Shown: positions 4,617 through 63,419 of the stretch, one piece after another | Layout: each line of letters opens with the position of its first letter | Position numbering within the stretch: the first letter of the stretch is position 1 | Origin: Schmidtea polychroa | Lineage: Eukaryota | Assembly: GCA_044892525.1 (NCBI GenBank) | Contig: CM097885.1 | Coordinates: 33,668,001-33,732,000, forward strand | Length of the DNA: 64,000 nt | Direction: 5' to 3' | Notes under the pieces: model-generated | Database searches by the model: none | The model's input: the letters and a program-made list of their open reading frames with translations, nothing else | What the model was told of the DNA's origin: nothing | Made by a program: the position numbers and the translations under genes

Positions 4617-21238
<16,622 letters not shown>

Positions 21239-24200
21239 GGTAAATGTAATTTGAAATTAGAAATTTTATTAAAACGATAATTTTCTCAAGTATGATATAA
21301 TTTTAATTTGAGCATTTCAAAATTTTAATTGAATGCTGCTAGGATACCAATATTTTAAACAATTTATTTTAAAATTTTGAATTAATATTAAAGTTTTATC
21401 CACATATCAAATTTATAATTTGTTGAATATAAAAATTAAATATTAATTTTTTGATTTAATAAAATGAAATTATTTGATATGACTTAAATAATGTTTTTGG
21501 AAGAATTCTCGTAATGAAAAAATATTTTTCAAAAATTGGACATTTGGTAATGTTGGGTTTTGGTTTACTTTACTATATCTTTTTTACCCACAATTCTGCG
21601 TGACTCATCCGGCTCAATCAGTCTACTGATCTCCACCAATCATTAATTACGGCGCTTAACAATTAAAGACAAATTTGATCTTAAAAACTTATTGTGTTTG
21701 CCATTTCTTAGTTGGATGTCTTCTAAATGGGATTCCGATAATTCTCTTTTGTTCACTTTTTCTATTTAGTAAGATCCTATATAATTTTTAGAAGGAACAT
21801 TATTATTACTGTCTTATTAACAGTGAAGCTAATGACTCATGGTGAGGCACGTAGTAGATTATCACTAGACTCCCAAGCCAAACATCCACCCCAAACTTGA
21901 AACATCATTGAAATGAAATTACCTTAGTGTCAAATAAAAAAATAGTAGTAGGAAATAAAAGATATTCATGCAAACAAATAAAATCTTTTTTAATCTTTTT
22001 CTGAATGTATGAGTGCGAATTTGAGGTGACCCTTATGCGATGATGAGAATTGATTTCAGGAGAATGTTGTATTTGCTAATTTTAATAATTTCAGTAGTAC
22101 GTTCGGCTAACGACCGATAACAACAACGGGCACCAATAGACAAGTCAAATGGACACGCTTCCGGATAGATGTGTTGGGCTGATGGTCAAATAAATAATAA
22201 TAATCAGATTAATAACTAAATAAGAATTAGGGGAGAGAATTAGCCCAGAGAAAGATAAACTAGAAAGAAATAGCAGAAAATTAATAAAAAATACAAAACA
22301 ATTACCTAAGATAATAGAAAATATTAAATAATAAAAAGAGATAGCACGGAAAATGAAAATAAAGATATTAAACCCAAAATAGTAATAATAATTAAGAAAA
22401 TTGGAAAAACGCGATAAAATTACTCAAAAATCAACTAAGAATTGAAAAATTAATTAATAATAAAATCGTTAAAAATAATGAAGAAATAATAAGAAAAGAA
22501 TAAAAAAGAGAAAAAATAAATAAAAATAAAATATTACAACCGCACTGGATTCTGATTGGATAGAATCCAGTATATAAGAGAATTAAGCGGCTAGTTCTTT
22601 CAGTTTTATAAAATTTATTTCAGGTAGGATAATGACTAAGTTTTTCCATTTTTATAAAATTTATTTCAGATTTGTGACCATCAGCCTAATTTAGCTATTC
22701 ACTTCAATTCATTGACTCAAAAGAATCCAGGATAATGTAAGCTTCTATTTATTAGCTGTATTTAGTATAATATTTATTTTTTCACTTATGCATTTGAACG
22801 TTAAATTTTAGTAAAAGTAATAATGCCTAATTAAAAATTAAATTTTAAATTTTCATTTTCTATTCTTTCGACAGTATATATTAATTATAAATATAAGTTT
22901 TTCGGTTAAACGTTTGAATCCGAGTTAGAGATTTATTGTGATTGATTGGTTTATGATTATGGGAATCGATTTTCAATTTTATGCCAGAATTTCATCCTAT
23001 GTGTCATGATTTATGCCGTTAGGGCAATATGATTTGGAATGATGCCATCGTGAGGACTACTTTGGAATGAACAATCCACGGTTTTTATATTTTGATTGGA
23101 TGATAAATGTAGTATAATAAATTATTTGATTTACAAGATTTTCTATTGAAATCGATTGAGGGAATATGCATCCGATGAATACGAGTCAATGATTATATGG
23201 ATAGGGTTTGAGGAGATGTATTGTCAGCCGAGACGTAGCCAGAAAGGAGGAGATGATAGGTAATGAAAGCGTCGAAGTACTTTTCGAATGAAATAATTGG
23301 ACTTGCGATGGAGTAGGCTAGATTTTGGTCAACATTTTCAGAGACAGATTTTGTAGTTCGTAATTATGAGGCATTTTTCTGAATTTGTTACCGTTATGAA
23401 TATAAAAATTTTATTTATTATTGTTTACTTAATATATTGGGGATTGATTAGCTAGGAGGACGTCCGGAACTGTCGATGCTTGCATTGATAGGGCACAGAT
23501 CGTCTTGCTGGATGATTGATCCTGGTGGTAGAAGGAGTAGAGGAGTGAAGTATAATATGTGGGAAACACAATTTGATTCTCCAGCTCGGTGACGGAAATG
23601 ATCTTATCCATGTCTTCTACTCCACATCTTAAAATAAGAGTAAAATTGGAATGAAATGTCGAGAGGCTTACTTTCAGATCTATACTTGACAAAATTTCGT
23701 TCCATTGCAACGAATTAATCGTCAATTTCGACCTTCAAAACATCCGATTTTCTCCAAAAATTGCACTTTAACGGGTTTCAATGCCAACTAGTAGGCAAAC
23801 TTCACTGTCTGATTTTCTACACTTCTAATCCTAAATTCTGTACACTGTTTATACGAACTGTCAGGAAATATCTTATCATTTGATCAGTCACATCATAACG
23901 AAATCTGACATCGCACAGTAAACTGCAGTAAGAATCATGTCGTAATCTAAATAGCCAGTAATTGAAGGTAAATATTGGAAAATGCCCTGATAAACATCCA
24001 CATATCTAATAGATCACCGCCGATGAATAAACATCTACACGTACAGTAGGTTTGATGATAATTTCTAATTATCCACAACACGATGGTAGGAATCAAAACC
24101 CCGACAGATAACATAACACCCGCATGTGATGATTTGACAAAAGACAAGTGTTCGATAGAAATCAGTAGTTGAATGTAATAATAGAGTCATAGCAAAGCTG

Positions 24201-25007
24201 CAGACACACTCTCTCGGACTAGCATACACACATCCTCGGGTAAATCGAATCTTGAAAAGTTTCTCCGACACACCTCTACAGCTACGAGTGTTAAGTGAAA
24301 AGCGGCAGAAATAAATAAATCTGGTTATCTCATCAATTCGAGTGACACAGGCGATAAGTTCTCTTCTATTAAAAATCTTTAATTCGGTCGGGTAAATAAT
24401 AAAAGCGGGCGACACCCTGCCATTACTTCGTCATAATTCTGTATCGATCTGGAATAAAATCGAAAGAGCCAGCGAAATTATAAACCCTTCAATAACTTTC
24501 TAATTATCATCCACTCAAGCAAAAAACTAATTCTTAATACCTTCTGTCGTTTTCTTCATGTTAGCTAACCAAGTGCGGAAACATATATTAATTTTTCTCG
24601 TTAAAGTAAATGATGTGGAAATTTTAATTACAAGTTTTCCCACAAAGCAAATAATCCACGATTAACATTAAAGTTTACTAAGTTTACCACTACTCATGAA
24701 CAGTAATATAAAGTCTACGTAATCAAATCCGAAAACCAATGATCAAATTTCTGTAATAGGATAGGAGGAAAGCCCATTTTTCAGTGTTGCATGATAGAAA
24801 CCCTACCCAACCCCTTCTAAAAATGCGGACAAATTTATCAATTTTTCATAATATGGATCACGCCGAATGAAGTATGATGAGTACGAGGATTCGCTCTTTA
24901 CTAGAGATTTGGGGGGGGGGGGGGTGGTGAAACCTTGCGGAACCTATTTTTTCGTGACGAGGTATTTTAATTATTTCATATAATTTCAATAAAATTTTCG
25001 ATACCAA

Positions 25008-25742
25008 ATGTCAGAACCAAACCTTCCTCCAACCGGCCCGAGACCGTGCTTCTCATGCGCCGACAAAAATGTTCTACTGAGAAAATCGGCCGAGTATATA
25101 GGGTCGTTAAAACGCAAGATCGACACCTTAGAGGGTACCTGGTTCACTCCAGCCAGTATGAAGGAGGCCCAGATGAAGATACTTCGGGTCGAACATTGTC
25201 GAGATAGTTTGCTGCAAGAGAGTCTGAGTCGGAGACTCACTATCAAAGCGCAATCGACCGCTCTACATCGCGTTTATTCCGAAGTCGAGTTAAAAGCGCG
25301 CATAACGGAATATCCAATCTCAGACAAGGGAAATCTTTTCCCCATACACCATGACTTGATTCATCAGGAGCCAGTTCAACCTTCTTGTTGCAGCGCTCAT
25401 GGCCCAACCATCGCGCTTCCAATCATGACAGACATCTTAAAGACAACCATGCCAGTAGCTGTGCAGCCAGTCATAAATCCGACAGATCCCACGACTTCTC
25501 AGTCAGCCGTTCCACCAGTACCTGGTAAGCAGAAGAGGAAGAAGCGGCTAACACAGGCCGAAAAGACAAAAAAACGTCGAGAGGAAATCGCGGCCCTCGA
25601 AGCGACCTTATTCGCGGCCACTCAGGCGAAGGGAGTATCTCCTACTGTTACCATCGTACCGGTCGAAATTGTACCGGTCGCCGTCTCTCAGCCATCTCTC
25701 GACCCTGCTTTGGAAGCGTTGTTGGCGGAGGGGGAGAAGTGA
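25008..25742 (+). CDS. Orphan 244-aa intronless ORF in GC-richer island (CxxC, coiled-coil-like segment, basic NLS-like patch)
   Basis: Uninterrupted ORF, GC far above flanks, with CFSC and KQKRKKR..KTKKRR. No family recognised. Confidence 0.5.
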   Translation: MSEPNLPPTGPRPCFSCADKNVLLRKSAEYIGSLKRKIDTLEGTWFTPASMKEAQMKILRVEHCRDSLLQESLSRRLTIKAQSTALHRVYSEVELKARITEYPISDKGNLFPIHHDLIHQEPVQPSCCSAHGPTIALPIMTDILKTTMPVAVQPVINPTDPTTSQSAVPPVPGKQKRKKRLTQAEKTKKRREEIAALEATLFAATQAKGVSPTVTIVPVEIVPVAVSQPSLDPALEALLAEGEK

Positions 25743-28013
25743 CGTTCGATAATCTGACAGGACCACCTCTCTATAAATCCTTCCCCAGAAAATCGAATGC
25801 TTTTTATAATAACGTTAAGGAACTATTCTGCATGGTGTATTTGGCTGCAAATTTATTGCGTATTTCTCTTCTTTCTTATTTGTGTGAGCTACATGTAGTA
25901 TGAAATCGATTGTAATGTAATTAAATGTCTGACTTTGTCTCGTTACTCGTTGAATTATTGATATTTCACTATAAAGACTTCAGTACAACTGCGTAGACAA
26001 ATTGGAAGACTTCACTTGGACCAGAGGCAGATTACTGAATGATGTAATTCCTTCCATGGCATTTCAGGACCCGCACCGCGAACACTGTGAGGAGTAGTTT
26101 TAGTGATAGAGCTCACCTGCTCACAGGTTCCAACCTCGGTGTACAGCACCAACATGACTCGTTGTCATGGGTACACAGGAGGGAATATTCTAACAAATCG
26201 TTTTGGGCGTCTGGGGTCAATGAATCAAATTTCAATGGCAACCCCTAGTTGCGCCAGTCGACGAAAAACCTGCCCAGGTGCCCAACAGATGTGTGAAATC
26301 ATCGACATCGAGTGAAGGTCCTGGGTCAGAATTTACAGCACCGATGGAAAACTCCAAGATCGATCTGATGTAGAGACGAAATGAGATCGATCGCCACTCA
26401 CAACGTGATAGTGCCAGTAAGCCAACATCCGAGGTGCAACCCGTACGAACAAACTAGGCGGACGGACAACACTTGAATTAAATCGTTTTCATCTTTTTTT
26501 ATTACATCTTGTTTTTATTTCATTGCCTTTTGGCCAGTTTGGTTTTGTTGCTTTATTATCGGTTAGCGCGTTGATAATTTGCTTGTTGTGCCCAACCTCG
26601 TTGTTGTTTATATGCCTAACTGGGAAAAGATCAATGACATCATTGATTATGTCATTAAATTAACCTATTTAAGTTCAGCATAAATAAACTATTAGCAATA
26701 TTCGAATTACGGAACATTTACACTGACTCACTACATTTAAGATTAGATTCAATAATCTACACGGAATCAGGCGAACTTAACCCGAATAACAACGGAACTA
26801 TACGTACAATATATCTGTGTGGAATGATTAAAATTACCATATCGTGAGTTGAAGACTATTGGTTTAACCCAGAGACCTTGAAAGAGTACAAATGAGAATA
26901 CTACAATTTCAAGAGCAGGCCACTAACTATAAAATTCGCCATATTCGGCAGTTGGAGACAGAACACTATCAAGTATGGAACAGCAGAGAAATCTCGTGCT
27001 AATCGCTTTCAATAAAGTGAATCGAACTTTCTCCGGATGACAGAACAAGTCAACGGATCCAGATTCCACCAACAGCGTGTGTCCCATGAAGGAAAAAGTG
27101 ATGCAAGATTGGACGGCAAGAACGGTTACACCGGAAACCTCACGAGGAGGCCCGTATTGCGGGGCATTTGCCGAAACAAATAGAGAAACTAAACCTTGAT
27201 GGGATCGTGGAGGTACGACCCGAGAGAATCAGTGGGCATGATTTTGTATATAAAAAATAATAAATGTCATTAAAGCAATGTTTTGGTGATTTTATTCCGA
27301 CAAAGATTAGGTTTAAGGCGAGATCATAAGAAAAATCAGGTCCAGACCTTCTATCGATACATCATTGACCCATTAAAGCGTTTGACAATTATAGTACATC
27401 GGGATGCTCTGATTTTTGCAAACACTTAACTATTCAGTAAATTACCAACGTTGAAGAATAAACGGGTATTGAGTGGCAGACAACGATTGTCTCATGTGTT
27501 ACGCTGGAAACAGCTAGAACGGCCAAAATGTTGATTATGTGTAACCCTGCCCCACATAAACTGAAAAAATATTACATGTTAGTTATTTGTAAAATATAAA
27601 ATAGTACACATTTTTATCGAATAAATTTATTAAATCAAATAAAGGAATTGAAATTATGATGCTTTTTCCCAAATATTATGATGACTTTAAGATTATTTAG
27701 TACCATTTGAGTCACTGTCTCTCAATCAGAACGCTCATTTTGCTCGTAATCAAAAACGTGCCATGATCAACAATGGTACAAGAAAGTTTGAATGATTAAG
27801 GATTAAGAGCACTTGGAAAGACTTCTTTGGGTTTATTCTTGTTTTGCACTACTTAAAAATCACAGAGCTCCTCTTGATATTTTATAATTTCTTGTTTACA
27901 TTTTACATTTTTATAATACTTTATATATAAATAATAAGTTGGGGAGATGTGGGAAACTTGATCCTTTAAGGAGACTTGATCTTCATTTCATATTTCGCGC
28001 TATTTAATTAGTA

Positions 28014-28795
28014 GGTAGTTATGTGCACTCCAGATCCAGATACCCCCCTCTTTTTTAAAATTTTTAAAAAGACCCCCCTATTTTTTTAATTTTAATTTTT
28101 GTTTTAATGGTCGATTACGAAATAATTTTAATTTGTTTAAATCGTTGATTATATGATAATATTTTTTTGGTTTTAATTATCGATTAAGTAATAATTTTAC
28201 AGTTTGATATTACTCATATGCAATAAGGATGCAATATCAATGCATGATTTTGATTGGTTGGTATGTGCTTAACCTCTATGACTTGTATTTATTGTATAAT
28301 ATTAATTTGTACATCTATTACACTAAGGTCTATGTGTTACTTGTTGATTCTAAATAATTTACTATCCTTACTCGATTTATTGATAACTATTTTTTTAACT
28401 AAAACATGTTGGTTTGTAAATATTTCAATAAAGATAAATGAATGAAAGAGAAAGATGTATAAGTGTTTAAAAAGATGTGTAAATTCAAAAATGGTGTACT
28501 AAAAATGAAATTTCAGAATTTTGATTAAATCATAGTCTCATTTAATAGAGAATTAAATTTCAAGTATATTGACTTTAAAAAGTCTTATAAAAAATCAAAA
28601 TTTATGGCGTAATCAATGATTCAAATAAAATTAAAATTATTACATAATCGATAATTAAAACAAAAATTAAAGTTTAAAAAAAATAGGGGGAGGGGTGTTT
28701 TAAGAATTTTTTTTAAAAGTACGGGGGGTCTTTTTAAAAAAAATTTTAAAAAGAGGGGGGGGGGTTATCTGGATCTGGAGTGCACATAACTACCT
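28014..28795. mobile_element. Non-autonomous element with long (~140 bp) TIRs
   Basis: GGTAGTTATGTGCACTCCAGATCCAGATA.. inverted at both ends, flanked by TA; appears nested in an older element ~27950-29050 (GAGACTTGATC repeats). Confidence 0.8.
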
Positions 28796-29908
28796 ACTTT
28801 CATTATTTATGATTATTTTTCGTATGAATGCTCTGTTGACATACCCAACGTGGAAATAGACCAAATATCAAAGAGCTGTTTATGACAAACATTGTGTTTA
28901 GGTTAATTTTAATATCCACGTGCTGTTGACTTGATTTTTTGGTAAGTGAACTTTTTTATTATACAACATAATAATAAACATTTATGGCTTACCTGTTAGA
29001 CTTGATCCCTGTGGGTCAAGTCTTGTTAAGAGGGATCAAGTCTCCTCGATTTTTTATTCTTGTGCAACTACTTGCCGTTAGTAATTTTATTATTTTTATT
29101 TTAATTATTTTGGTTTTACTTTTGTTTTACTTGGTTTGTTATTAAGATATTTTAAATTTTATTCTTGTATTTTTTATGCTTTGTGAGTCATCTCAGTTAC
29201 CTCGTTACTTGTCGGATTAAAACAAGAAAAGATTAACGAAACAGAAAAATTGATTTCTAGCCCAACACAACACTAACATATTTTATATTATCAGTATCAC
29301 AATAAATGCAAATTTATTATTATTTAACAGCAACGCAACTAGACTAAATGGTTTCTCATAAACGTTAGAAAATTGGGTATATATAATTATTAATCTCAAT
29401 CAACAAAAAGCTAAAAACTAATAACATAAGATATTTTTGCCGTTTTGCACAGCGGAGCTGGGAGTAAAATTTACTATTTACTGTTCATTTGTTAACTTAT
29501 ATCATACAGACAAAATGCACGAATAAAAACCCATCGAAAAATCTATAACTGTAAAACCATCAATCAAAAAAGTAAAATTGTAAAAGAAAAGCTCAAAAAA
29601 CGAAACTCTTACTACTAGATATTAACTTAGCGTTTTCAAATGTCGTCATTTTTTTTCTAAACTTTAAACCGGGAAGAATGAGTTGAAAAATAGCAATCCC
29701 TGAAAACCGGGACGACTGGAAACACTTATTGTATAAACACTATCAATTTATCGGTTTCTTAGTAAAAGAAATTATTAAAAAATATCATTATGAAAATTGT
29801 TTTAATTATAAAATTAGAATACATTATTTCAAATAAATTTAAGGAGTAATATTTATTTGTTCACTTGAAAACAAATAATTGAGACAAAATTAAAAAATAA
29901 TAATAAAC

Positions 29909-30079
<171 letters not shown>

Positions 30080-30568
30080 AGTGCTTCTGATTGAAAGATT
30101 TATATAAACTGATTTAATAGTAAAGTTTGAGTGCCTTCATTATACCTGTAAAATTCAGTTAAGGCTAGTTTAAGCCCGCAAATTTTAGAGACCATTCATG
30201 TTTTGCCATGCGATGCAAAAAAACATACAAAGAGTAATAAAAATACAGTTAAAAGTATGATTAATGCGTCTTGTGAAAACATGAGTGAGATACATTTTAC
30301 AGCCATGGATGAACATGAAGATAGCATGAAATATGTTTCGACTCGCATGACTTATTTTCTATTAATACAAATTACTCTACTGTTTAAAGTCATAATTTGT
30401 AGAAAATGTTTCTAAATACTCCAATAAACATCAATTATTGTGAAAACACTGAAAATCATTTGTGCAGACCATACGAAGAATATCCCAATGTTAAAGACAA
30501 AATTGAAATAAACCAAGTAAGAATATAATAAATAAGACTAATTTGTCATTGATAATGATATTCAGGAA

Positions 30569-31210
30569 ATGAAAGAATTTAAAAATTTAACAAAAAGATT
30601 AGAGAAAAATTCCAACCATATTAAAATTCCCATGAATGCTTTTATGGTTTGGGCAAAAGTTAACCGAAAACTCATGGCTACCCAATATCCGAATTTCTCA
30701 AATTTAGAAATCAGTAAATTACTTGGGAAAAAATGGAATGAAATGTCTGCAGAAGAGCGGACTCCATTTATCAATGAAGCCAAACAGCTTCGAATTGAGC
30801 ATTTGAATCAGTATCCAGAATTTAGATATCAACCTCGAAGACGACAAAAGAAATCGAAAAAATCTAAACCAATCAAAACCGATACGGTTTCTCCAACCAA
30901 TCAATGTTCGGCTGATTTTCACAATTTTGAAAATTTGAATTTACAGAAAATACCAAAATTCAATTATGCCGATTTGAATAATTTCGAGGTGAAAAACATC
31001 TACGACTTCCAGCCGGCCTCAATGAATTATAATTCTGAGATCAATTTATTTAATGATTATTTCGATCAATCCGTTGATTCGGTTTTCCAACCAATCGACA
31101 GCAATCTCCCATCCGTCAGTTCATTGATCTACAACAGTCATCCGTATACTTTCAATTATGATAAATCATTGGCGCCATTTAATTACATAGAAAATGAATT
31201 GTTTTTGTAG
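30569..31210 (+). CDS. Sox-family HMG-box transcription factor (divergent; YQPRRR end resembles SoxE)
   Basis: HIKIPMNAFMVWAK..NLEISKLLGKKW..ERTPFINEAKQLRIEH..YPEFRYQPRRR; AATAAA at ~31228. Upstream exons cannot be excluded. Confidence 0.93.
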   Translation: MKEFKNLTKRLEKNSNHIKIPMNAFMVWAKVNRKLMATQYPNFSNLEISKLLGKKWNEMSAEERTPFINEAKQLRIEHLNQYPEFRYQPRRRQKKSKKSKPIKTDTVSPTNQCSADFHNFENLNLQKIPKFNYADLNNFEVKNIYDFQPASMNYNSEINLFNDYFDQSVDSVFQPIDSNLPSVSSLIYNSHPYTFNYDKSLAPFNYIENELFL

Positions 31211-60511: not shown

Positions 60512-60929
60512 TTCAATGCAAATGCAAAATATAGTATTCAAAAAACTTTTCAAAATTGCACAAAATTCAGACAAATTTAAACAACGAAAAATTCTTAATA
60601 TAAATTAAATTATGTTAATTGTAAACAATATGAACTAAAATATCATATACAAAGTTTCAGAATTATATTGAAAAAATCACTTATTTATTTCATTTAATAA
60701 AATAAAGTATAGTTTTATTTTAAATTTATGAAATTAACTTATTATATGAATTTATTATTTGGCAATTATATTCTGTGAGTTCATAAAGAAAATTTGGACA
60801 ATTCAGTTACATAAATTATTATCCATTTCATTGGATCAAAGAAAAATTTACTGTACCAATCGGTTTTATTTTTAGTTTAATTGTTTAATTGCTAAATAAA
60901 TGGTTTCATAAACGCGAATTTCCTCAAAG
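60512..60929. promoter_or_regulatory. Putative bidirectional promoter ASH2L/TRPC
   Basis: Divergent inferred start codons 418 bp apart; ATTGG (~60830) and CCAAT (~60856) boxes in opposite orientations. Confidence 0.55.
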
Positions 60930-61550
60930 ATGTGGGAAATAGAATTAGTATCTAAACAATTGGATAGTTTACGATCTTTGATCGCTGGTAAGAATAAGAA
61001 ATGCACAATAGTTGGTCAAAAACTGCAGTCAGAAAGTGGATTAGTGTTTTCAACACATTTAAAAGACAAGGAGTACATTTACTTAAATGCTGTTGAATTT
61101 GGTGAATATGAAATGGTTCAAAAGATGGTTGAGGATCCTGAAATAAATGTCAACTGTGTTGATTATATGGGGCGAAGCGCTATATTATTAGCAATGAAAA
61201 GCGATAACATGGAAATGATTGAATTACTTTTGGATAAATTGGAATATTGCCTTATTGAAGATGCATTATTAAATGCTATAAGTAACGAAAAAATCAACCT
61301 AGTAAAATTGATAATTGATCACCAAACATTCATCAGAGCAGAAAAGTCACATCAAAGACAACGTTTAAGAATGCAAAATGCAAAAAAGTCTTACCGAAGT
61401 CAATTTTCATCAGATATAACGCCTGTAATGTTAGCTGCTCAAACGAATAATCACGAAATAATTCAATTGCTATTGGACAGAGGTCATGCGCTAGACATGC
61501 CGCATGATATCGGATGCATGTGCCCGCACTGTGAGAAATTAAAAAATGAG
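60930..61550 (+). CDS. TRPC: TRPC (canonical TRP channel) first coding exon: ankyrin repeats plus TRP_2 zinc motif
   Basis: YLNAVEFG, INVNCVDYMGRSAI, DALLNAI, SQFSSDITPVMLAAQTNNHEIIQLLL, PHDIGCMCPHC; donor GAG|gttggt at 61550/61551. Confidence 0.92.
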
Positions 61551-63419
61551 GTTGGTAGAAAGAAATTTCTTAATTTAATATTCCAAATATTAGCATGTTT
61601 TGAAATTTAAAAATTATGAGTATAATGAATAATTAAATAAAATTATTTAATTACGAAACTTTTTTAATTAGTTTATTTTTTAATTATTATTACTGAAAAT
61701 CATCAAATAAATTTAACATTTTGTGTTTAATATAATTAAGATAATTCTGTGGAATTATAAAATTTATTATTTTAAAAATTATTATTATTTTTAATTAATT
61801 TTATATTTATTTTTCATTTTTATGACAATAACATAATTTTATTTAACTTAAATTTAAAGTTTTTGAAATTTTTTATATTTTAATGAAGTATCCACTTTAT
61901 CATTAAAATTAGTAATTATTTATAATTTTATTTCCAGTTTTCTTTGATTCATACTTATCTAAATTTAAATGTTATTAAAAAATTATTATTTGTTATAATT
62001 AAAATAATTCATTTCGTTCTTCATTTCTTTCAAACAATAGATCAATATTTTGTTAAATAGAAAACAAAGCATTTTTTTATAATCTGAAAGAAATAAAGAT
62101 AAACGAAATTATAATTGTAAACATATCCCATGTGAATGAGATAAAGATTTTCGTGAGTTAAATGAAACTGAAGTAATTTTTAACTAAATCTGTCGTTTTA
62201 TTTGAAGTTACAACTTTTCGGTACTAATTATCATTTTTTTCAATTATTCCTTCCTTTGAAAGACCAAGTATTTTAATCTGTATTAGACTCATAAAGGTTG
62301 TGAACTGAAACAAAATGACTTCACTAAAATCTAAATTATTTTTCCTGCTGGTTTATTTTTACATTTTCAACAATCATAAATAACATTTAAAGTTAATAAA
62401 TATTAATGGGTACTAGCTTTTTAATTTCTATTTAATAACTTGTGTATCCTTTTAATAATTTTTTAGATATATCTCTTACAAAATTATAATTTATCAGTAA
62501 AATCTTTTAATTTTTGTTCGCCTTTTATCTGTTTTCTTTTGATGTTTTATTTATTTTCATTATGGCAATAAATGGATTATTATTTAATATTTTAAAATGT
62601 GTAATTAATTCAAAAAAATAATAATTTTCGATGTAAATGTTTTGTTTTATACAAATTTATATCTATGAATATTTGGCATGTCCGATCTTTTACGATAGAC
62701 AATTTAGCAAGGTGGTTTTTCTGCGACAATTATTTTGATGTTTAGAAGACAAATATTACTGTTAGTATATTTGTATTGTCTTATAATTATATGCGTCGCT
62801 GAAATTTAATTTCGCATAATTTACTATCGCGTAAATGGAGTCACGGAAATTCATGTTGCGTAAGATCAACTAAACCGTATATTTATTTTTTTAACCAATG
62901 ACAATTGATAAAGTTAATTTAAAGCGAGCCGCAAATTTTTATACCTAATAGACGTGCCACTCTCAACCGAGATAATTATAGCCTCTCAATTGTTCGTCAA
63001 AATTTACTTACCAGTAAAAAAGAATTCAATCAAGATACATCTCTCAAATGTCACGTATATGCTGAATTAGACTTTATACGCTTGAAAATAATACGTACAT
63101 TGTTTTAACAATTTGTACAATGAAATGGATAGTTGAAGGCACAATATACCATAAAGACAATGAATATTTATATTTGAAAATGCCTACCGAAATCATTCCT
63201 TCTGGTTATAAGTTTAAGTTAAAAAATATCTTCAAACTTATTTTGTCTTACTTTTATACTATGGCACCGTGCATCCCCTTTTAATTATTATTTTACACCC
63301 TGGGTTACCCAAACACTGATGTATATATATATGTATATAAATTATTAAATAGCAAAAAATATTTGGAAACTATAGATTAGATTTTATCATAGTAGTCGTC
63401 GGTTCGTTCTTCATTGTAG

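Follow-up and report, generated by a model that had tools for sequence, protein, structure and literature searches.

Long terminal repeats (LTRs) as a general rule begin with TG and end with CA, and a solo LTR arises when the paired LTRs of one retrotransposon recombine with each other. According to the accessible part of one account (PMC6431247), the Burro elements of planarians have internal regions of up to 25 kb, a total length of more than 30 kb and accessory open reading frames (ORFs), while the Ogre elements of dicot plants have LTRs of 1.9-6.5 kb. In this communication we describe a GC-richer island at positions 21551-27556 of a 64-kb window, by which we mean the whole stretch of 64,000 nucleotides from Schmidtea polychroa (contig CM097885.1) that was analysed. 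The island is a repeated element in an old copy, bounded by TG..CA ends and containing an intact gene (ORF A) besides two decayed ones (blocks D and C). As a mobile-element remnant it is real and multi-copy, and it carries an unnamed protein family. We lean towards reading it as a solo LTR of about 5.5 kb, with accessory genes, from a giant Burro/Ogre-like gypsy retrotransposon, although we would put this slightly short of an even chance.

The Burro/GYPSM1 elements, in the excerpts of PMC6431247 available, resemble the island in the multi-kb terminal repeats implied for them, in their accessory ORFs and in occurring as several families with many copies. They differ in that none of their domains (Gag, MATH, BIR, BCL2-like, ankyrin, Env and the protease, reverse transcriptase, RNase H and integrase series, PR-RT-RH-IN) is found in the island, and genes inside the LTR are not mentioned in that part of the account. 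The LTR range of Ogre includes 5.5 kb, and Ogre too has extra ORFs of unknown function; unlike those of the island, they are placed in the internal region and not in the LTR, and the hosts belong to a different kingdom (PMC6431247, same excerpts).

The window is eukaryotic and AT-rich (GC 0.274), and contains AAT microsatellites, transposon remnants and host exons. The sharp compositional difference reported by the first-pass annotation of this DNA is borne out: GC is 0.399 in 22901-27556, compared with 0.308 for the best 4.65-kb interval elsewhere in the 64 kb, and 0.338 in 21551-22171 compared with 0.195 in the left flank at 20850-21550 (Fisher P 5e-9). On the left, a single change point in GC is best placed at 21537, 14 nt short of the TGTTGGG that starts at 21551. 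A fit with two change points over 15-35 kb puts the first at 23150 and the second at 27560, where the CCCCACA end lies. Since the raised GC has steps about 15 nt or less from TGTTGGG (21551) and CCCCACA (27556), we regard the island as real. A raised CpG content had been claimed as well; the observed/expected ratio is nearly the same in the island (1.06) and in the whole window (1.02), so that this claim reduces to GC content, and reading the stretch as a CpG island was dropped.

We propose a single old insertion at 21551-27556 (6006 bp, or about 5490 bp minus a nested repeat), marked by TG..CA ends, GC change points and bridging contigs. The left terminus, TGTTGGG (21551-21557), matches the reverse complement of the right terminus, CCCCACA (27550-27556), in 6/7 positions; this short inverted repeat, whose two halves had both been quoted before, sits at the GC change points. 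TAA precedes the left terminus and comes directly after the right one. Counting either strand, the window holds seven TGTTGGG and two TGTGGGG, against 3.5 and 1.9 expected, and with such low counts a chance meeting of 7-mer and change point is unlikely; the two 7-mers could still be the ends of different elements. Beyond them the two ends of the island share no further direct similarity (score 30 versus 26.6, 33/200 shuffles) and no further inverted similarity that would amount to a long terminal inverted repeat, or TIR (score 27 versus 26.5, 90/200 shuffles). Helitrons start with TC and end with CTRR, between A and T; with TG and CA ends the island was rejected as one.

Copy structure was taken from contigs of public sequencing runs. 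The stretch is present in 6 of the 15 listed runs, from two studies, and four runs (X1, X5, X6 and X9) were compared over 17500-29850 at 85% likeness, the contig listing covering 40 of the 1252 differences, 15 of the 310 joints and 32 of the roughly 41,700 pieces. X1 may be the source sample; X9 is possibly RNA, and its contigs were not counted as evidence of expression. Summed contig depth is not copy number; unique contigs lie at about 30-44, and the ranges given for bins come from three deep runs. Contigs of X1 cross both junctions with 0 differences (20736-22199 and 27089-27974), and the left junction is also bridged by contigs of X5 and X6. Summed depth is 190-2040 across 22856-25739, 960-1360 at 26152-26563 and 150-200 at 27388-27799. 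Between the first two of these, at 25740-26151, it rises to 23,600-28,500, some 20-50 times the neighbouring bins, and there is no visible hairpin or simple repeat.

The number of distinct contigs (three runs, two studies) is 9-11 at 23801, 9-15 at 25188, 14-20 at 25571 and 14-21 at 26048. At each of these positions the contigs have a letter other than that of the window and make up nearly all of the depth, so this copy has private changes and many relatives. The longest listed relatives of the core (about 22.9-26.6 kb) differ from this copy by 10-14%, which is close to the 85% cut, and faster-evolving parts may therefore drop out of the comparison. One 1449-nt contig of X9 is colinear over 23672-24195 and 24779-25036, that is, from block D into ORF A. 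Single-copy host sequence, which the first-pass annotation had named as the opposing case, is excluded for the core, where up to 21 distinct contigs overlap. A one-off endogenous viral fragment or host gene was likewise rejected, the core being multi-copy in the contigs and the ORF A domain having 17 relatives. No loci related to the element were found in viral, metagenome or genome contigs, or in phages.

ORF A (25008-25742, plus strand) is intact and encodes 244 amino acids (aa), within 249 open codons, a length that 0/300 shuffles reached. Ten relatives (E 8e-10 to 2e-4) came from scanning all of 1.84 billion representatives with HMMER, and seven more from a search with a profile. All 17 match the N-terminal domain, at approximately 32-39% identity to ORF A, and form at least two subfamilies with 35-78% mutual identity. 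In 15 of the 17 (P0002-P0018) an unrelated domain lies alongside, a different one each time: SNF, CRAL-TRIO, GDC-P, L21, actin, S8, ABC, PTP and hAT in the first relatives and, by precomputed accession, what we take to be Sedlin/Sybindin, MCM, ankyrin, LSM14, M1 peptidase and DAD in the later ones. The relatives are singletons labelled only MetaClust, status=active. Given 15 fusions to 15 different unrelated domains, they are most simply explained as a GC-rich transposon ORF that gene predictors would have joined to adjacent genes in a single repeat-rich proteome; those genes may also have truly captured the domain. Together, the 17 relatives, the variety of their fusion partners and the two or more subfamilies are what an abundant element of several families would be expected to give. 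Whatever the class of that element, ORF A is a member of an unannotated and unnamed repeated protein family.

An AlphaFold2 model of ORF A, built from 11 sequences, consists of a helical N-domain (aa 17-107, with helices at 17-41, 48-89 and 92-107), a low-confidence Pro/Thr linker (108-166) and a basic helix (172-207), the mean predicted local distance difference test score (pLDDT) being 66. For residues 25-115 a parallel coiled-coil homodimer is predicted with a score of 0.60, compared with 0.00 for the best of three controls; the runs agree in at least 83% of contacts, with pLDDT 80. The mark used is reached by 21/30 solved microbial homodimers and 0/23 single chains, and among eukaryotes by 17/29 and 0/30, respectively, and the prediction supports such a dimer for the N-domain. 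An Arg-rich tract follows the linker in the relatives, with a PPPY motif behind it in several; the Pfam REV family matches one of 10 relatives (E 0.0013, below the cut-off), probably for reasons of composition.

Searches with ORF A outside its own family returned little. Pfam gave only ELK (E 0.036, below the cut-off), NCBIfam no family, and a word-indexed protein search 0 of 737 candidates; the family alignment retrieved six proteins in that search, none of them new, and the family profile a best E of 0.83 against PDB sequences. Fold searches of the model returned no viral match under E 0.001, the best being VIA (Z 7.8) among generic helical hairpins. The best ESM Atlas scores, 0.79 for ORF A and 0.75 for an open piece of block D, are leads only. 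Considering substitutions only, the chance of finding no stops in ORF A in the absence of selection is 0.30 at 5% and 0.09 at 10% private divergence, and intactness by itself is thus no proof of selection.

Block D (23440-24450, minus strand) is a decayed gene of approximately 330 codons with stops and frame changes, lying head-to-head with ORF A. With up to three frame changes its minus strand contains three stops, versus 9.0 in shuffles (0/60), and the plus strand there is stop-rich; the longest open piece, at 24065-24430, has 121 aa (2/300 shuffles). Taken alone, the sub-stretch 23672-24195 has no significant coding signal (13/60). Over 324-523 nt, three listed relatives of D show a divergence of 13-14% and 0-1 gap letters, whereas three non-coding pieces have 10-14 gap letters in 258-348 nt; in one X5 contig a segment inside D is replaced. 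NCBIfam (three open pieces) gave no family and a PDB sequence search no match. A MATH-like look of D by eye was not supported, and fold searches with the model of a D piece (pLDDT 39) are meaningless. In the spacer between D and A (24451-25007), 14 consecutive G (24911-24924) stand directly before a TG.

Downstream of ORF A, a TATA-like word at 25771 and an ATTAAA at 25920 (25771-25960, plus strand) lie inside the bin of very high summed depth. Block B (25990-26600, plus strand) is repeated and GC-rich, with no measurable coding signal and 14-21 contigs at 26048, and ends in an ATTAAA (26477) and a T-rich tract; as a second paralogue of ORF A it was rejected, its score being reached by 23-29 of 40 shuffles. 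Block C (26612-27270, plus strand), which ends at an AATAAA (27259), is a likely decayed paralogue of ORF A: 26821-26912 aligns to aa 32-62 across one frame change (score 60, 0/300 shuffles, 0/182 real tiles). HMMER alone misses it (iE 3), and at the DNA level the similarity of A and C is that of chance (149/300).

Pfam detected 0 families in all six frames of the island (stops read as X) and 0 in 16 and 12 shorter pieces, which agrees with the earlier finding that no reverse transcriptase (RT), integrase, transposase or capsid motif is recognizable; Rfam and tRNA scans found nothing. The many decayed ORFs seen on both strands come down to two decayed blocks (D on the minus and C on the plus strand) and one intact ORF, while 21551-22171, 22950-23390 and 25990-26460 have no depletion of stop codons on either strand. 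The poly(A)-signal-like spacers stand in part. On the plus strand, the sequence behind the hexamers at 26477 and 27259 is rich in T+G (99th and 92nd percentile of 777 hexamers), and that behind 25920 less so (77th); the minus-strand hexamers at 23415-23419, near the spacer placed at about 23400, have no GU-rich follow-up (2nd and 7th percentile).

The second TGTTGGG, at 22172, had been offered as an alternative left end of the island. It is probably part of a separate nested repeat, A-rich and about 520 bp long (22172-22691, plus strand; GC 0.229, AT skew 0.31), with a decayed TIR containing a 12-bp perfect core (22177-22188/22675-22686). The two bins holding this repeat (22032-22855, summed depth 1050-2330) are far deeper than the sequence just left of them (42-55). 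We treat it as a later insertion into the island, which would remove 22172 as the left end and leaves an island of about 5490 bp. As candidate left ends 22170 and 22172 had termini matching in 5/8 and 7/8 positions, flanks matching in 3/4 for 22170, and a unique X1 contig ending at 22199. Since that contig end falls in an AAT run and the 22170/22172 start has its own inverted partner at 22675-22691, we assign this start to the nested repeat. The repeat resembles (score 69, 1/200 shuffles) an element at 27937-29267, a minus-strand element of about 535 bp with TGTTGGG-type ends and 3/5 matching flanks, split by a foldback at 28010-28798.

An element that has TG..CA ends with a 7-bp inverted repeat, contains neither an internal direct repeat nor a gene for an enzyme, and exists in many diverged copies is most simply interpreted as a solo LTR. 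The size of 5.5 kb would then call for a giant parent, in line with the total length of Burro and with Ogre LTRs of up to 6.5 kb, and the low-copy right part is tied to the core by the likely paralogy of block C with ORF A. On this interpretation the two LTRs of a giant gypsy retrotransposon would have recombined, with loss of the internal gag-pol region, leaving an LTR of about 5.5 kb that itself carried accessory genes, namely the head-to-head pair D (minus) and A (plus) and the likely paralogue C; the 520-bp repeat would have inserted later. If the parent ran on the minus strand, A and C would lie antisense to it, as units with poly(A) signals of their own that leave the genomic RNA at full length. 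The present copy has probably lost its mobility.

Retroviral accessory genes that are borne by the LTR or run antisense include sag of mouse mammary tumour virus (MMTV), nef and Rev of human immunodeficiency virus (HIV) and HBZ of human T-cell leukaemia virus type 1 (HTLV-1). ORF A may be compared with these as a small regulatory gene in or against an LTR, with an oligomerizing helix and a basic motif; the difference is that ORF A itself has no sequence or fold match. By this analogy and from the model, its product would most likely be a dimeric basic protein that binds RNA or DNA in the nucleus and regulates the element, in a Rev- or HBZ-like role.

Several observations weigh against a single giant LTR. 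Its left part at 21620-22031 has a summed depth of 42-55, near the unique level of 30-44, and its right part at 26564-27387 one of 39-96 (39-73 at 26564-26975), nearly single-copy at 85% likeness; LTR ends are usually shared among copies. Nothing beyond composition links 21551-22900 to the core, and the stretch is partly a mosaic, since 22172-22691 is a nested unrelated repeat. The match of block C to ORF A comprises 31 residues and was first spotted by eye, with a profile of 10 outside relatives its score is reached by 2/40 shuffles, and singly these relatives give 0-3 of 60 shuffles in three cases and 10-35 of 60 in seven; for these reasons we grade C no higher than a likely paralogue. TGTTGGG ends are common in this window, with other elements at 22172 and 29267, and a single-change GC fit within 27000-27830 falls at 27237, the step at 27556 alone having P 0.01. 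The island lacks a clean 4-6-bp target-site duplication (TSD), as had been stated before; there is TAA on both sides only, and matches are 2/4 and 1/5. This could reflect decay or slippage in an A run, and a TSD is possibly hidden given the age of a copy 10-14% removed from its listed relatives.

Nothing ties the element to gag-pol, and our literature search found no precedent for three genes and several poly(A) signals inside one LTR. Nor did that search, which had primary Burro sources outside its range and is therefore weak on this point, find a description of genes inside Burro LTRs; Burro LTR lengths and LTR-borne ORFs do not appear in the accessible portions of PMC8532177, PMC11410931, PMC13524379, PMC13238120, PMC13465017 and PMC6884822. 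The giant solo LTR suggested by the first-pass annotation, with its left end at 21551, thus keeps its GC steps at both TG..CA ends and its lack of an internal direct repeat, but has no clean TSD and ends that are low-copy at 85%. The step from a repeated gene-bearing element to the LTR of a Burro-like element might go either way, with the balance just against it. More doubtful, though possible, is the broader idea that giant planarian retroelements use 5.5-kb LTRs as gene cassettes holding a head-to-head pair and a duplicated dimeric coiled-coil basic protein, so that solo LTRs seed stand-alone regulator genes; equally tentative is its corollary that each LTR gene has its own poly(A) signals and that this old copy has kept ORF A intact.

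Among the alternatives, a shorter LTR would begin at the G run. Here a giant retrotransposon on the plus strand would have 24925-27556 (2.6 kb) as its 3' LTR, the 14 G as its polypurine tract and the left part as a truncated internal region; D would be an antisense accessory gene of that internal region and ORF A would lie in U3, before the TATA box and poly(A) signal, where MMTV sag and HIV nef offer comparison. TG follows the G run directly at 24925, the TATA-like word (25771) and ATTAAA (25920) are in place, and a conserved R region could account for the depth spike at 25740-26151. A length of 2.6 kb is also compatible with the more than 5 kb implied for both Burro LTRs together (PMC6431247, in the part available). 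Across the G run, however, depth does not rise (101-194 at 24960), it would be by coincidence that 21551 has both a GC step and a matching 7-mer, and the ORF A paralogue would need to sit in U5. We consider this arrangement unlikely, both as to the extent of the LTR and as to the placement of D and A within it.

Also unlikely is a DNA element or a DNA-virus-like one, internally deleted or non-autonomous, that has short TGT..ACA ends and compact genes, each with a promoter and poly(A) signal of its own, and is moved by an integrase supplied from elsewhere. The head-to-head gene pair, the tandem paralogue, the separate poly(A) signals and the 3-bp TAA on both sides would suit it, and Maverick/Polinton elements likewise have compact genes in both orientations, with poly(A) signals of their own. 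Unlike these, the island lacks AG..CT ends, a long TIR and a 6-bp TSD, and a clear Maverick-type end occurs only 450 bp away, at 28010-28798. Of the hallmark genes, no protein-primed DNA polymerase (pPolB), integrase, ATPase, protease or capsid has a Pfam match in any frame, although the genes are decayed and some Polinton proteins have no Pfam model. The Polinton option raised earlier fails on the termini.

Less likely still is a mosaic in which the repeated core is accompanied on each side by unrelated, older GC-richer fragments, the TG..CA ends coming from different elements. The patchy depth with single-copy stretches at both ends, the one certain nested repeat, the absence of coding signal in 21551-22171 and a split-hAT test across the insert that gave no gain all fit such a picture. 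Against it, the low-copy right part contains block C, which is probably a paralogue of ORF A, a single contig runs colinear from D across into A, and with listed relatives 86-90% identical any slightly faster-evolving part would fall under the 85% cut. That ORF A is a host gene, or a domesticated gene under selection, in single-copy DNA is very improbable: it is intact where its neighbours are broken, but 9-20 other contigs overlap it at 25188 and 25571 in three runs, its relatives are fused to 15 unrelated domains, and a stop-free frame without selection still has a chance of 0.30 at 5% and 0.09 at 10% divergence.

If the stretch is one LTR, it would be among the longest animal LTRs and would carry whole genes, and solo LTRs would then spread expressible regulator genes and not promoters alone. 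Independent of the class of the element, the ORF A domain is probably present as a false fusion in at least 15 public gene models, and its profile provides a handle for locating the parent element in planarian assemblies. Burro1 has been reported, second-hand, to aid planarian stem-cell survival via a captured domain (PMC13465017, as far as accessible), which makes further element-borne proteins worth naming.

Just right of the island, at 27600-27830, a hAT transposase has left its decayed 3' end (tblastn E 0.011; Pfam E 0.007, which is below the cut-off). The left flank is as AT-rich as the right, with similar depth, and is hAT-like by eye only. One hAT gene split by the island was not supported, as joining the flanks gave no gain with the one hAT protein used (100/100 shuffles reach the score); an empty-site joint is absent among the 15 listed of 310 contig joints. 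The foldback at 28010-28798 (789 bp, AGTAG..CTACT ends, flanks 5/6) is of very high copy and is a miniature element with Maverick-type termini. The deepest coverage in 17500-29850 belongs to a short palindromic repeat at 20356-20468, a partial copy of which lies at 135-190.

Other remnants in the window include a decayed small gypsy-like element at 10286-14338, with similar ends (10286-10473/14156-14338) and gag, protease and RNase H-like pieces recognized by eye. Also by eye, decayed RT and GIY-YIG-like (Penelope-like) frames are seen at 7271-9286 and a Tigger/pogo-like transposase remnant at 18230-19629. Host exons, again identified by eye, belong to an HMG-box (Sox-like) gene at 30152-31210 and to an ankyrin-containing TRPC-like channel at 60912-61610.

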